In this document: one piece after another, positions 480 through 7,920 of the stretch
How the letters are laid out: every line of letters begins with the position of its first letter
Position numbering within the stretch: the first letter of the stretch is position 1
Origin: a virus
Direction: 5' to 3' (one strand)
Length of the DNA: 35,119 bases
Virus genome (UHGV): UHGV-0196339
Translations under genes and position numbers: made by a program
The notes under the pieces: generated by a model
Database searches by the model: none
Told to the model about the DNA's origin: nothing
The model's input: only the letters and a program-made list of their open reading frames with translations

Positions 480-1946
480 CTAACCTCCTAGTTTCTTTAA
501 AATTTCTAAAACTTTCATTTCGATATTTGCCCGATTAGCAGAGAGATCTGCAAGCTGAGCAACTTCCTTTTCCAACCAAGGGTACCGGACAAAATGTTTA
601 CTTGGATCCGTCAGCATCTCGTCAGCTAGTTCCTTGGCCATATAACCAGTGACGCCAAGTGGAAGCACGACAACCCCTGTTTCCTGAGCAATTTGAAACT
701 CCCTTCGGACCCCATCAGCATTAACGATTCGACCATCATGGAGTTTATTCCCAAAAAGGAATATAGCGATTCCAGAAAGACCAATCATACGCTGCCGATA
801 TTCGTCCCATAGCTCGCTCAGGGCTTTATCGTTTGATGAGTGTTGAGGGAATGGCCGCATGATAAGTTGCTCTTCTGAGTACTTATCAGGCTTAGAATAA
901 ATGGCTTCAAGAGCTCCGTTGATGACCGCACTACCAATACCCCATCCAAACCCATTGACAACTCGATAGCCATTCTTCACCAAAGATGACGAAAGTATGT
1001 GTACAAAGTTTAGTGCTTCCTGTTTGTCCCAAGCGCCATACTCTTCTGCACTACCAGATATAAATATGGTCTTCTTGAGGAAGCGACTCTCAATCTCTTT
1101 CAATATAAGTGGAATATCATCGTACTCGTTTACTAATACAGCCTGAATGCCAAAACGGAGCAAATCGCGAATATGATGTTCTTGCCTACGCTGCCTATAC
1201 ATAGCGCCAGCTTCATCTTCATTTCCTTGCGGCAGAGAGGGTTCCTTACGAAGAAAGCAGTAGTGTCTACGACGATGCTTCTCCGGAACATGCAATCGGC
1301 TCAATATGTAATCAAGATTAGGATCAGTAAAACTGAAGCCAATAAATAAGAATGTCTTAGAAATCAAATCTCCACTCAATGCTGTAACAAACCCCTCATG
1401 GGTCTTGTAGTACTGCTCATACTGAGCTTTATAAAGTATGGCGTCACCTGGCGAGCTAACATCACCATGCATTTTGTAAACAACAGCATCTCGTTTAGGA
1501 CGAGTGGAAATAAGATCATCGGTTCTGCGTTTAATATCTGCGACACGGTAGTTTTCTTTGAGACTATCTTCAATCAAAGTGTCATAGTTGGTTGTCCAAT
1601 AAGTTCTAATGGGTAGTCTAGCAAGGATTTTATGGGCTTCGGAAGGTTCCGCTTGCTCCGAGAATTCCTCTAGGATTTTTCTAGCTAAACCAGTTGAGCT
1701 GTTGTTCTTGTTGACATGGTATTGTGCAACCGAAATTAAGTCGTGCTCTAGCTCAACAGAAAGGCCTAATTCTTCAGCAATTTCACGCAGCAGTTCACTC
1801 CAATTAACGAAGCCGCTGGTTCTAGATAGGCCCGCACCAGCAAAAACGGCGGCAACCCCTTCTTCGAGATCCTTCACATAAGTCCTGATAAAAGCTTCAA
1901 CTTCAGCCGAAAACTGAACACTCATATTTTTAGACAATCCGGTCAA
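480..1946 (-). CDS. thsA: Thoeris ThsA, SIR2 (NADase) + SLOG domain protein
   Basis: 488 aa. SIR2 motifs FAGAGLS, TTNYD, YKMHGD, FIGFSFTDPNLDYILSR. C-terminal SLOG-like region (FISGSAEEYG, GFGWGIGS). Operon partner of thsB. Confidence 0.9.
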   Translation of the reverse strand: MTGLSKNMSVQFSAEVEAFIRTYVKDLEEGVAAVFAGAGLSRTSGFVNWSELLREIAEELGLSVELEHDLISVAQYHVNKNNSSTGLARKILEEFSEQAEPSEAHKILARLPIRTYWTTNYDTLIEDSLKENYRVADIKRRTDDLISTRPKRDAVVYKMHGDVSSPGDAILYKAQYEQYYKTHEGFVTALSGDLISKTFLFIGFSFTDPNLDYILSRLHVPEKHRRRHYCFLRKEPSLPQGNEDEAGAMYRQRRQEHHIRDLLRFGIQAVLVNEYDDIPLILKEIESRFLKKTIFISGSAEEYGAWDKQEALNFVHILSSSLVKNGYRVVNGFGWGIGSAVINGALEAIYSKPDKYSEEQLIMRPFPQHSSNDKALSELWDEYRQRMIGLSGIAIFLFGNKLHDGRIVNADGVRREFQIAQETGVVVLPLGVTGYMAKELADEMLTDPSKHFVRYPWLEKEVAQLADLSANRANIEMKVLEILKKLGG

Positions 1947-2338: not shown

Positions 2339-2599
2339 ATGTTCCGTTGTCCACTTTGTGGTGCATCTGCCCGTATCCGCACCAGTCGTCCGGAAAATGA
2401 TTCAAACACTGTACGACAAAAGTATTACCAGTGTAATAACTTAGAATGCGGCGTATGCTTCTCAACACTGGAAGCTTTTCATAAGTTCACATCAAAACAC
2501 ACCTCCTGCGTTCACTCTTCAGGGGATATTCCGTGGCATGAGCTGCCAGCTTCACACAAGGGAAACAATCAGATGAGTTTGCCTTTACCTCAGAATTAA
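2339..2599 (+). CDS. ogr: Ogr/Delta-type zinc-finger late-gene transcription activator
   Basis: 86 aa, MFRCPLCG...ARIRTSR...YYQCNNLECG: C2C2 zinc-finger pattern as in P2 Ogr. GGAGG SD upstream. Confidence 0.9.
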   Translation: MFRCPLCGASARIRTSRPENDSNTVRQKYYQCNNLECGVCFSTLEAFHKFTSKHTSCVHSSGDIPWHELPASHKGNNQMSLPLPQN

Positions 2600-2687
2600 C
2601 AAGCAGAATTGCCGGAGTAGCAAAAAAGCGATAGATTACGCGCGGGTGCCTTTCGGCTGATGGTCGGAGGGAATACCCGAAGGCCAG

Positions 2688-2924
2688 ATGTGGAAAGGCC
2701 CCGGAAAAACATCTCTGTTTAACCGAGGCCCTAACCGCATTACCTTGACAAGTGAAAGGTTAGCGCCTCTCCGGAAAAGGAGCAAGTGCTATGTCGCAAA
2801 AATCGCTTACGGCCATCACGTTCTGCGTGACGGCAATCCTCATCATCTGGATGCTGCACGGTTCGCTGTGCGAAATACGGATGAGCTTCTGGGGAGCGGA
2901 GTTTGCGGCGTTCTTACAGTGTAA
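2688..2924 (+). CDS. mok-like overlapping reading frame (modulator of killing) of the hok locus
   Basis: 78-aa ORF starting upstream of hok and overlapping it in another frame, the arrangement known for hok/mok/sok loci. No independent sequence support. Confidence 0.3.
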   Translation: MWKGPGKTSLFNRGPNRITLTSERLAPLRKRSKCYVAKIAYGHHVLRDGNPHHLDAARFAVRNTDELLGSGVCGVLTV

Positions 2925-2931
2925 GCAGTAA
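2791..2931 (+). CDS. hok: Hok/Gef-family type I toxin (small membrane peptide)
   Basis: 46 aa, MSQKSLTAITFCVTAILIIWMLHGSLCEIRMSFWGAEFAAFLQCKQ: N-terminal TM helix, then SLCEIR and E-x-AAF motifs as in Hok/Gef. AAAAGGAG SD at 2775-2782. Too short for the ORF track. Confidence 0.7.
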   Translation: MSQKSLTAITFCVTAILIIWMLHGSLCEIRMSFWGAEFAAFLQCKQ

Positions 2932-3020
2932 GGAAACCGCGACGGGGGAGCAATCCCCCGTCAATCGGTTGCCAAGGTAAGGTCGATAAGGCACCCTATC
3001 TCATAGAGATGAATAACAAA

Positions 3021-3052
3021 CCCGCAGCGTAAAAACTGCGGGGTTTCTTTTT
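3021..3052 (+). terminator. Rho-independent terminator of the hok transcript
   Basis: Hairpin CCCGCAG-cgtaaaaa-CTGCGGG followed by TTTCTTTTT. Confidence 0.5.
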
Positions 3053-3120
3053 GGAACTCTCACTAGCTAGTGTACCGTTAGCGGCACATAATGCTCGCAC
3101 AACAAACCAGTTAAAAGAGA

Positions 3121-3516
3121 TTACTCAGCATTCTCCTGCTTCCATTGCCGGATCATTTCATCGGTAACATCACTCTCATAACATACCACGTCATACCCTC
3201 CAGTACGGCTATATGCACTGCGTCCACCACATCTACTACCATTCCTTGCATGATTATAAGGACACGCACAATTGCCTGGATAAGATTCAATGGATTCTTT
3301 AATTATTTCTTTCTTGATCTGAGCATCTGACTTTCCTTTTGCTGCATACCCACTAAAAGATACCAAACAAAGGCAGATTGCCATTAATAAACCACATCGC
3401 ATACCGATACGCCCTATTACTAACCAATCATAGCCCACATCATAAAATCGAGATGAGGAGTACAACACCTTTAACAAGAAGGTGCCATCACGATAATATG
3501 TCGTGCAATTCATCAA
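3121..3516 (-). CDS. Hypothetical Cys-rich secreted or membrane-anchored protein (att-proximal cargo)
   Basis: 131-aa ORF. Internal Met at 3402 is followed by a signal-peptide-like segment MRCGLLMAICLCLVSFSGYAA and a Cys-rich domain (GNCACPY...RCGG...VVCY). The true start may be 3402, which has a better SD. AT-rich. Confidence 0.5.
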   Translation of the reverse strand: MMNCTTYYRDGTFLLKVLYSSSRFYDVGYDWLVIGRIGMRCGLLMAICLCLVSFSGYAAKGKSDAQIKKEIIKESIESYPGNCACPYNHARNGSRCGGRSAYSRTGGYDVVCYESDVTDEMIRQWKQENAE

Positions 3517-3937: not shown

Positions 3938-3992
3938 TGGTACCCGGAGCGGGACTTGAACCCGCACAGCGCGAACGCCGAGGGATTTTAAA
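3938..3992 (-). other. Phage attachment core: 3'-terminal ~55 nt of a tRNA-Leu(UAA) gene (anticodon loop to CCA), not a complete tRNA
   Basis: Minus-strand sequence TTTAAAATCCCTCGGCGTTCGCGCTGTGCGGGTTCAAGTCCCGCTCCGGGTACCA matches the 3' part of enterobacterial tRNA-Leu (leuZ-like, recalled from memory). The 5' half (D-arm, acceptor 5' strand) is absent. Confidence 0.7.
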
Positions 3993-4098: not shown

Positions 4099-5100
4099 TT
4101 ACCCTCTATTATCAAAAGGATTCAATTCAACAGCAGCCTCTAAATGACCTGGAGCAAAATGCGCATAACGCATAGTCATTTTTATATCGCTATGCCCCAG
4201 TATTTTTTGCAACACAAGAATATTTCCGCCCCGCATCATAAAATGACTGGCAAACGTGTGACGTAGCACATGAGTTAATTGCCCATCAGGAAGCTCGATC
4301 TTCGCTCTCTTAATTGCAGCGTCAAAAGCCTCATAACATGGTGAAAATAGCGCTCCTCGTTTTTTAGGAAGCATAGCCTGCAATTGAGGTGAAATAGGTA
4401 CAGTGCGGTTCTTCTTTCCTTTAGTTTTAACAAATGTGATTCGACCGGGCAGTACTTGAGATTGCTTTAATCCTTCTGCTTCACTCCACCGAGCACCAGT
4501 CGCAAGCCCAATACGGACAACAACCCCCAAATCTTTATTCCGTGACTCATCACACGAAATCAGAAGGCGTTCAATCTCATCTACATACAGAAACGCCAGT
4601 TCCTTTTCTTCCTCACGAAACTTGCGAATACCAGTCAGAGGGTTTTCACCAGACCACTCCCCAAGGCGCTTCAGTTCGGCAAAAACAGCATGTAGATATG
4701 ACTGCTCGCGATTAACGGTTGCTTCACTAAGTTTTTTCTTCCCCTTGGGATTCCATTCTCCTGATAGCCTTCTTTCCCGATAAGTAGCAAACATATTTTT
4801 GTCAAACTGAGAAGCAAATGGATCTCCCAGCCTAGAACAAATCGCCTCAAGTTTGACTTTGCGCTCTGCACCAGAGGACAAGGTTTTACCGTACATCTCA
4901 AACCAACGAGCAATCAACTCAGAAAGACGAGGACCAGAACCATCTTGAAACTCGTCTCCAACTCTACTATTCATTAAACGGCGCTCATAAGAGAGCGCCT
5001 CACTTTTTGTCGCAAACTGTTTACGAATGCGTTTTCCCGATGCCCCGTAGGGATAACATTCGCAAAGCCATTTACCTGATGGAATCTTACGAACCGACAT
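4099..5100 (-). CDS. int: Tyrosine recombinase / phage integrase
   Basis: 333 aa. C-terminal catalytic region with HVLRHTFAS, GHSDIKMTMRYAH (R-H-R-Y family). Adjacent to the tRNA-derived att core. Confidence 0.95.
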   Translation of the reverse strand: MSVRKIPSGKWLCECYPYGASGKRIRKQFATKSEALSYERRLMNSRVGDEFQDGSGPRLSELIARWFEMYGKTLSSGAERKVKLEAICSRLGDPFASQFDKNMFATYRERRLSGEWNPKGKKKLSEATVNREQSYLHAVFAELKRLGEWSGENPLTGIRKFREEEKELAFLYVDEIERLLISCDESRNKDLGVVVRIGLATGARWSEAEGLKQSQVLPGRITFVKTKGKKNRTVPISPQLQAMLPKKRGALFSPCYEAFDAAIKRAKIELPDGQLTHVLRHTFASHFMMRGGNILVLQKILGHSDIKMTMRYAHFAPGHLEAAVELNPFDNRG

Positions 5101-7643: not shown

Positions 7644-7734
7644 GAAACCAGAACATGCACACACAAAAAAACCGCTTGCCATGCCTCAATAGGTCAGGTT
7701 ACATTTCCGCTGCACCTCATAAAACGGGTGCCGG

Positions 7735-7920
7735 GATTCTCAACCCGACACAGAGCAAAGCGCATAACCGCGCAAGCGGTTTTTTTGTGCGTACTGTATT
7801 GCCACGTCTTTTTCGCGTCAGAATTATGGCGGGGCGTACGGGGCCGACTTTGGTCGGGCCGGATTCTTTGCTCTCCGGTGTTGAGAACCCTGTACGTCTC
7901 GCCACCCCGAGATTCTCAAC
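7735..7920. repeat. Three copies of GATTCTCAAC-like motif (two direct, one inverted) flanking a terminator
   Basis: GATTCTCAACCCGACACAGAGCAAAG at 7735-7760. Its imperfect reverse complement at 7866-7889. GATTCTCAAC again at 7911-7920. Confidence 0.4.
7766..7787 (+). terminator. Rho-independent terminator within the early region
   Basis: AACCGC-gcaa-GCGGTT followed by TTTTTT. Confidence 0.5.

Follow-up and report, generated by a model that had tools for sequence, protein, structure and literature searches.

The 35,119-nt viral genome UHGV-0196339 (hereafter the window, meaning the whole stretch analysed) very probably carries a hok/sok-type type I toxin-antitoxin module as cargo of a P88-like (Xuanwuvirus, P2-like) temperate Escherichia coli phage whose complete genome, circularly permuted, makes up the window. 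A 46-aa open reading frame (ORF) with the features of an intact Hok/Gef-family toxin gene lies within a conserved, hok-type RNA architecture and is accompanied by conserved promoter-like boxes on both strands, from which a toxin mRNA and an antisense RNA, Sok, are predicted (Table 1). The module is genuine but already catalogued: the gene is annotated in RefSeq and assigned to a PHROG, and its peptide has been assayed.

The toxin gene, its implied toxicity and its spread

The ORF lies below the cutoff of the ORF list and had been picked out by eye in a sequence-only reading of the window, which assigned it to Hok/Gef from the motifs SLCEIR and E-x-AAF. The encoded peptide, MSQKSLTAITFCVTAILIIWMLHGSLCEIRMSFWGAEFAAFLQCKQ, carries these motifs at residues 25-30 and 37-41 (E-F-A-A-F), behind a hydrophobic stretch at residues 6-23. 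The assignment is borne out by the Pfam model PF01848 (HOK_GEF), which the peptide matches with 29.9 bits (E 4e-7; gathering cutoff 22) and which aligns at profile positions 5-42 of 42 with residues 7-44, and by a match to PHROG 251 (80.6 bits, E 1e-22). The residues C16, T18, L30, C31, E32 and E41, conserved in more than 80% of Hok peptides according to a preprint survey (bioRxiv 10.1101/2025.08.07.668861), are found here, uniformly shifted by -4, as C12, T14, L26, C27, E28 and E37. Ratios of nonsynonymous to synonymous substitution rates (dN/dS) in hok range from 0.13 to 0.67 across all compared pairs and from 0.17 to 0.40 for divergent pairs. A search of the window with PADLOC gave no match for Hok.

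The peptide is identical to entry 72_1621 (construct LRP137) in Table S2 of the same survey (Escalera-Maurer et al., bioRxiv 10.1101/2025.08.07.668861), and no protein-level difference separates it from this cluster 72 entry, from WP_000078916.1 or from PHROG 251. In that study 45 homologs were tested, and only 19_179, 60_1482 and 69_1540 were non-toxic on induction; since 72_1621 is among those tested and not among these three, its toxicity on overexpression is implied, a favourable indication from the literature for a toxicity that the sequence-only reading had made a touchstone. The survey classes cluster 72 as a high-abundance cluster and finds hok enriched in prophages, while mok, Sok and the mRNA were outside its analysis.

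The gene is indeed widespread. E. coli chromosomes contain a 461-bp region of the window at 100% identity, with its product named "Hok/Gef family protein" by the Prokaryotic Genome Annotation Pipeline (PGAP); a match is present in 1546 of 5426 complete E. coli genomes (~28%), with 1986 matching places in E. coli. The PGAP protein WP_000078916.1 appears in the annotation of E. coli H3 and in that of an IncC plasmid, and the identical peptide is encoded by at least 80 IMG/VR viral contigs. The P88-like phages P88, Chuche, PhiR44_2 and others carry the locus at 93-98% identity, many Shiga toxin (Stx) phages carry it downstream of lom at ~81% DNA identity to the window, and relatives of the module also occur on IncI1 and IncC plasmids. 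A scan of species-representative genomes yielded only six loci, three of them in implausible hosts, and hardly widened the alignment. The copies in a Planococcaceae metagenome-assembled genome (L015) and in Vagococcus sp. (L016), 98% identical at the protein level, and the copy on an 857-bp Xanthomonas pisi contig (L019), 72% identical, most likely reflect contamination of the assemblies and not the real distribution. In L025, L027, L031 and about 45 further IMG/VR loci the prophage contigs stop exactly 3 nt past the hok stop codon; boundary calls placed at gene ends in this way drop the 3' untranslated region (UTR) of hok, with its 3' hairpin, fbi and terminator, and RNA-level analyses would therefore miss half of the module.

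Table 1. Elements of the hok module and other features of the window (positions in the window)
Feature	Position	Strand	Basis
hok toxin gene, 46 aa	2791-2931	+	Pfam HOK_GEF, PHROG 251, dN/dS, identical peptide in preprint table
hok Shine-Dalgarno AAGGAG	2777-2782	+	8 nt ahead of ATG; read from sequence
Predicted hok promoter: -35 TTGCCG (2609-2614), 17-nt spacer, -10 TAGATT (2632-2637)	2609-2637	+	read from sequence
Predicted full-length hok mRNA, about 409 nt	2644-3052	+	RF01794 alignment start 2644; fold; homologs
tac, 5' end; partner fbi or ucb	2644-2658	+	minimum free energy fold (tac:fbi); RNAalifold consensus (tac:ucb)
ucb, GUGGAAAGGCCCCG	2690-2703	+	near-invariant in alignment
GAGG, at position of R1 mok Shine-Dalgarno	2725-2728	+	Rfam covariance model alignment; alignment with R1-type locus
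Variable loop of GAGG:dcb hairpin; predicted target of Sok 5' end	2737-2756	+	most variable leader stretch, invariant flanks
dcb-like box, GGUUAGCGCCUC; opposite strand carries Sok -10	2758-2769	+	consensus fold
3' UTR stem-loop past hok stop codon	2940-2963	+	helix 15: 99% paired; compensatory changes in 4/9 pairs
fbi element, AGGUCGAUAAGGCACCC	2980-2996	+	pairs with tac; alignment diverges downstream
Intrinsic terminator: hairpin 3021-3042, then T-run	3021-3052	+	common to many relatives
Predicted Sok antisense RNA, about 60 nt; hairpin 2732-2695	about 2750 to 2691	-	promoter and hairpin; ends inferred
Predicted Sok promoter: -35 TTGCTC (reverse complement of 2780-2785), 17-nt spacer, -10 TAACCT (reverse complement of 2757-2762)	2757-2785	-	
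78-codon ORF overlapping hok in -1 frame; allele-specific	2688-2924	+	ORF list
ogr	2339-2599		immediately precedes hok module
Small Cys-rich protein gene between hok module and attP	3121-3402/3516	-	PHROG 27544 (unknown function), 196 bits
Integrase ORF	4099-5100	-	beyond attP core
ThsB (TIR) and ThsA (SIR2-SLOG), type I Thoeris	10-477 and 480-1946	-	PADLOC 233 and 673 bits
isrK	7712-7786	+	Rfam above threshold, 61.9 bits
C4 antisense RNA	7822-7909	+	Rfam above threshold, 77.6 bits

The predicted hok mRNA and Sok RNA

The RNA spanning 2644-3052 folds far better than expected by chance (z = -8.7; 0 of 100 shuffles as good), which implies that the 46-aa ORF is no chance ORF. A fortuitous small ORF in the intergenic spacer between ogr and the attachment (att) site might be suspected, given its length of only 46 aa, under the usual gene-calling cutoffs, and the many other small ORFs that overlap the region. 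Next to this fold, the above-threshold Pfam match, the PHROG 251 match and the conservation of the module as a unit in P2-like phages, Stx phages and IncI1 and IncC plasmids make such a coincidence exceedingly improbable.

Two mutually exclusive folds, which are those described for the R1 hok mRNA, can be formed by this RNA. In the minimum free energy (MFE) structure of the full-length molecule, the 5' end closes on the 3' end (2644-2658 with 2980-2996, tac:fbi), ucb pairs with the CCGAGGCC region, and the hok Shine-Dalgarno (SD) sequence is held in a hairpin with 2761-2772. In the RNAalifold consensus of 39 distinct homologs, tac pairs instead with ucb (2690-2703), and GAGGCCCUAAC (about 2725-2736) pairs with the dcb-like box GGUUAGCGCCUC (2758-2769); the MFE fold of 2644-2966 likewise gives this alternative, with tac:ucb and the SD region paired with dcb. 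When the full-length structure was counted on the 39 homologs, 92.1% of cells were paired, compared with 35-45% for slid controls, and the tac:fbi helix was 97.2% paired, showing changes from G-C to G-U and a single compensatory pair. The dcb-like box is invariant at 11 of 12 positions in 39 sequences, with C2764 conserved in at least 90%. The pairs of the alternative fold are almost invariant, and covariation there adds no evidence either way.

The homologs also help to delimit the module. Among relatives in different contexts, homology starts at the -35 box of hok and stops just past fbi, limits that define the mobile unit; downstream of fbi these relatives have different sequence in place of the window's terminator. 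The sequence-only reading had noted this downstream terminator, and it is confirmed as a hairpin followed by a T-run. At the 5' side, the predicted hok promoter boxes have 8 of 12 consensus matches, under the scan threshold, and in divergent homologs from other contexts the pattern TTGnnn-N17-TAnAnT stays in register although the spacer sequence varies.

The Rfam search that the sequence-only reading had proposed gave a divided result. RF01794 ("sok") is aligned over its full length (positions 1-157) with 2644-2804 on the plus strand, and the match is significant (E 2e-9). Since an R1-type plasmid control matches on the hok strand, the model represents the hok leader in sense orientation and not the antisense RNA. 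The control scores 87.2 bits, whereas the window scores 47.6 and its relatives 38-50, and at the gathering threshold the whole window yields only C4 and isrK, the hok leader appearing only in E-value mode. Judged from these alignments, the leader of this subfamily is a divergent one that the Rfam threshold misses.

On the minus strand, the predicted Sok has been placed by its promoter boxes and hairpin, with its start set about 7 nt downstream of the -10 box. The candidate RNA has a fold z-score of -5.3 and a 10-bp G+C stem followed by UUUCC. Its -35 and -10 boxes are invariant in 39 of 39 homologs, and the R1-type locus has TTGCGC-N17-TATCCT at the same place. The 5' part of Sok would be able to base-pair with 2737-2756, where the leader varies most, as expected if this stretch sets the specificity of Sok for its target. 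An antisense RNA had been anticipated opposite about 2650-2730; the predicted Sok overlaps only the 3' half of this interval.

By analogy with plasmid R1, the module could work as follows. Transcription from a weak predicted promoter would begin at about 2644 and yield a stable mRNA about 400 nt long, in which tac pairs with the 3' fbi element and ucb with the GAGG region while the hok SD and AUG are held in a hairpin, so that no toxin would be made. Slow 3' trimming, as in R1, would take off fbi; tac would then re-pair with ucb and GAGGCCCUAAC with dcb, and this refolding would expose the target loop and weaken the hairpin that covers the site of ribosome binding to hok. A short, unstable Sok RNA, transcribed from TTGCTC-N17-TAACCT and running from about 2750 to about 2691, would pair with the leader and stop expression through a block of translation and/or cleavage by RNase III. 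Once Sok synthesis ends, the 46-aa Hok would be translated, insert in the inner membrane and kill or lyse the cell.

The chromosomal hok copies of K-12 are mostly inactive according to earlier reports, and the window's locus might, like several of those, be a decaying, non-functional relic and a passive prophage passenger. Some relatives are in fact degenerate (internal stretches are missing from an E. albertii plasmid copy, and Stx2_EH2011 has lost 8 nt behind the start codon), and the mok frame is unstable. However, the ORF of the window is intact and is identical in the viral contigs counted above, dN/dS is well under 1, each of the promoter boxes, and each of tac, ucb, dcb and fbi, is intact as well as conserved, and the text of the preprint implies that the identical peptide is toxic when expressed (bioRxiv 10.1101/2025.08.07.668861). 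A relic is thus improbable.

Counter-evidence and the leader ORF

A number of observations weigh against a hok/sok-type module. At the protein level, the NCBIfam HokA equivalog NF007290, the best-scoring NCBIfam model, reaches 34 bits (E 2e-8) against a cutoff of 89, far too low for the peptide to be an ortholog of K-12 chromosomal HokA, and the Hok family model NF007279 reaches 21.6 bits against a cutoff of 73; furthermore, the toxicity assay of the preprint overexpressed the coding sequence alone and not the native locus (bioRxiv 10.1101/2025.08.07.668861). At the RNA level, the window stays below the RF01794 gathering score of 59. Pairs changed on both sides number 30, compared with 16.6 +/- 2.6 in shuffles (0 of 500 reach 30), but in this covariation test the structure was taken from one aligned sequence and the homologs are closely related. 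A consensus promoter scan of 2500-3200 found 0 sites, neither the hok nor the Sok promoter passing, and both promoters are consequently argued from positional homology and conservation; for the Sok boxes, conservation is in turn a confounded measure, since dcb and the region where ribosomes bind hok consist of these very bases. Sok, both promoters and 3' processing are predictions. Finally, R1 requires mok to be translated up to the hok SD, and no conserved mok is found here: 17 of 50 alleles (25 of 96 loci), including those of the isolated phages P88 and Chuche and of Stx phages, have no ORF with an ATG, GTG or TTG start that reaches the hok SD.

These counts come from a census of 50 distinct leader-plus-hok alleles drawn from 96 loci, in which the most upstream start was counted. 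A leader ORF reaching the hok SD starts at -130 in 19 of the 50 alleles, at -103 in seven (the window included), and at -100, -47, -46 or -28 in a further seven. In most relatives the long leader ORF is opened by ATG 2660, 130 nt ahead of the hok start; in the window, an extra A in the A-run 2705-2709 cuts this frame to 20 codons (2660-2722) and shifts the long frame to the -103 ATG. The window also has TGC in place of TGT as the codon for Cys27, which removes a TGA from the -1 frame. Elsewhere the frame is closed in various ways, by TAA or TAG at -46 to -44, by a TGA right before the SD, or by ATG-TAG in IncI1 plasmids. In P88, TAA stands in place of the window's TTG at 2745.

The resulting ORF of the window, 2688-2924, had been compared with mok in the sequence-only reading. 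It does exist and overlaps hok, but it has no Pfam and no PHROG match, and it was rejected as a conserved mok on 13 and then on 50 distinct alleles. The strong SD credited to it is real as well but belongs to hok; ATG 2688 is preceded only by AAGG with a 4-nt spacer and lies inside a helix in the predicted folds. In the alignment with the R1-type locus and the relatives, no conserved start codon follows the GAGG at 2725-2728. By comparison of alleles, the subfamily would either tolerate the loss of mok or hold many silenced copies.

The first of these alternatives leads to a tentative proposal, namely that this subfamily of 46-aa "AAFLQCK" toxins (cluster 72 and relatives) is a hok module without an obligatory mok, in which the conformational switch itself opens the hok ribosome-binding site. 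It is equally tentative that Sok would act in such a module by making the dcb arm pair again with the hok SD and AUG, through RNase III cleavage, or by both means. Besides the alleles without a leader ORF and the different ways in which the frame has been closed, the proposal draws on purifying selection on hok between lineages that lack the ORF (dN/dS 0.22-0.27). It also draws on MFE folds in which a hairpin over the hok SD and AUG (2761-2772:2779-2791) is present both in the full-length RNA and in a truncated RNA with the Sok target masked, and is replaced by helices of 2-3 bp in the free truncated RNA. On the other hand, in 33 of the 50 alleles, including that of the window, an ORF does run through the leader and on into the hok SD, and the 1-nt indel that breaks the -130 ORF in the window coincides with use of the -103 ATG, which could reflect selection for a leader ORF. 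The ensemble probability of an unpaired hok SD barely moves (0.33 to 0.38), the leader ORF is essential in R1, and the alleles without an ORF could simply be silenced copies. A mok-free module is accordingly doubtful, whereas a hok/sok-type module as such is strongly favoured.

Related systems and genome context

The R1 hok/sok (parB) system resembles the locus of the window in the order of its elements (promoter, tac, ucb, GAGG, target hairpin, dcb, hok SD, hok, 3' hairpin and fbi), in its two mutually exclusive folds and in the position of the antisense promoter. R1 Hok is a peptide of 52 aa compared with 46 aa in the window, and the two share 12 of 31 residues (39% identity) across a BLASTP segment covering residues 12-42 of 46, including SLCEIR and E-x-AAF. 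Unlike R1, the window has no conserved mok start behind GAGG, and its module is phage-borne and not plasmid-borne. In the R1-type locus used for comparison (pMTY1886_IncFII, L014, 292-509), the mok ATG is in frame with hok, reading ...HMSDNIRIASYRALRKEKKAMKLPRSS..., and PGAP annotates merely a 33-aa Hok fragment there. The shared frame of mok and hok apparently stems from a 1-nt difference from the R1 sequence.

The best available functional analogy is hokW-sokW of the Stx2 prophage Sp5, which is not an ortholog. It is likewise a prophage-borne hok/sok locus, and its Sok promoter, TTGCCT-N17-TAACC(T), has the identical -10 hexamer. HokW toxicity and sokW antitoxin activity have been demonstrated in Sp5, where sokW vanishes and HokW appears on induction and where phages are released faster and in about twofold higher amount than in a deletion mutant (PMC8621323). 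A promoter-less sokW mutant lost antitoxin activity (Takada et al. 2021, PMC8621323), and comparison of primers YO-421 and YO-597 from that paper leads us to deduce that the hexamer altered in it is TAACCT, which became GAGCCT. An identity of the window's locus with the published hokW-sokW was rejected, as the primers and peptide of PMC8621323 define a different toxin: HokW is a 51-aa HokD-like peptide (MKQQKAM..., cluster 35) with 31% identity to the window peptide (cluster 72) over 35 residues. In Stx phages, a 46-aa-type hok copy lies just downstream of lom (L002, 2170-2310; L013, 318-458) and is unannotated in many records. Since this copy is separate from hokW-sokW, Stx prophages of enterohaemorrhagic E. 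coli can hold two hok subfamilies. The database label "MokW-like host killing" on the 46-aa ORF is misleading, as the ORF is a Hok-type toxin and not Mok.

Within the phage, the sequence-only reading had placed the module next to the att site. The window is colinear with a prophage of E. coli H3 up to 3992, where identity breaks inside a host tRNA-Leu gene. The last 55 nt (3938-3992) duplicate the 3' part of this gene and thus mark the attP core; ARAGORN found no complete tRNA in the window. The end of the att core lies ~0.9 kb downstream of the module, with one small gene between them, whose Cys-rich product has an N-terminal hydrophobic, signal-like segment and is a "hypothetical protein" in the 93-aa version of PGAP. 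Upstream, the Thoeris pair sits between the tail genes and ogr, ~0.7 kb from the hok module, and PGAP names the same pair in E. coli H3 as TIR-domain and SIR2-family proteins. Further along the genome, isrK and C4 form a P1/P7-type c4 immunity/antirepressor control element in a P2-like genome.

As a discovery, the module carries little weight, given that its gene is annotated, its PHROG named and its peptide assayed, and that it is present in more than a quarter of complete E. coli genomes. Nonetheless, a sub-cutoff ORF read by eye proved to be a true toxin gene, and the analysis maps, at the level of coordinates, the regulatory RNA elements of a Hok cluster for which no description of the mRNA, Sok or mok existed. 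Both the "MokW-like" label and the equation with hokW-sokW are wrong for the 46-aa subfamily. Other hok loci have been proposed to help retain the element that carries them or to exclude lytic phages; in the present phage the module may serve prophage retention, exclude other phages or help lysis on induction, and the Thoeris neighbour in the cargo region of a P2-like phage bears on which of these (retention, phage exclusion or lysis timing) is the role of a prophage hok. The map also raises a testable question, namely whether mok is dispensable in the 46-aa subfamily. If true, mok-free regulation would represent a variant form of textbook hok/sok control.

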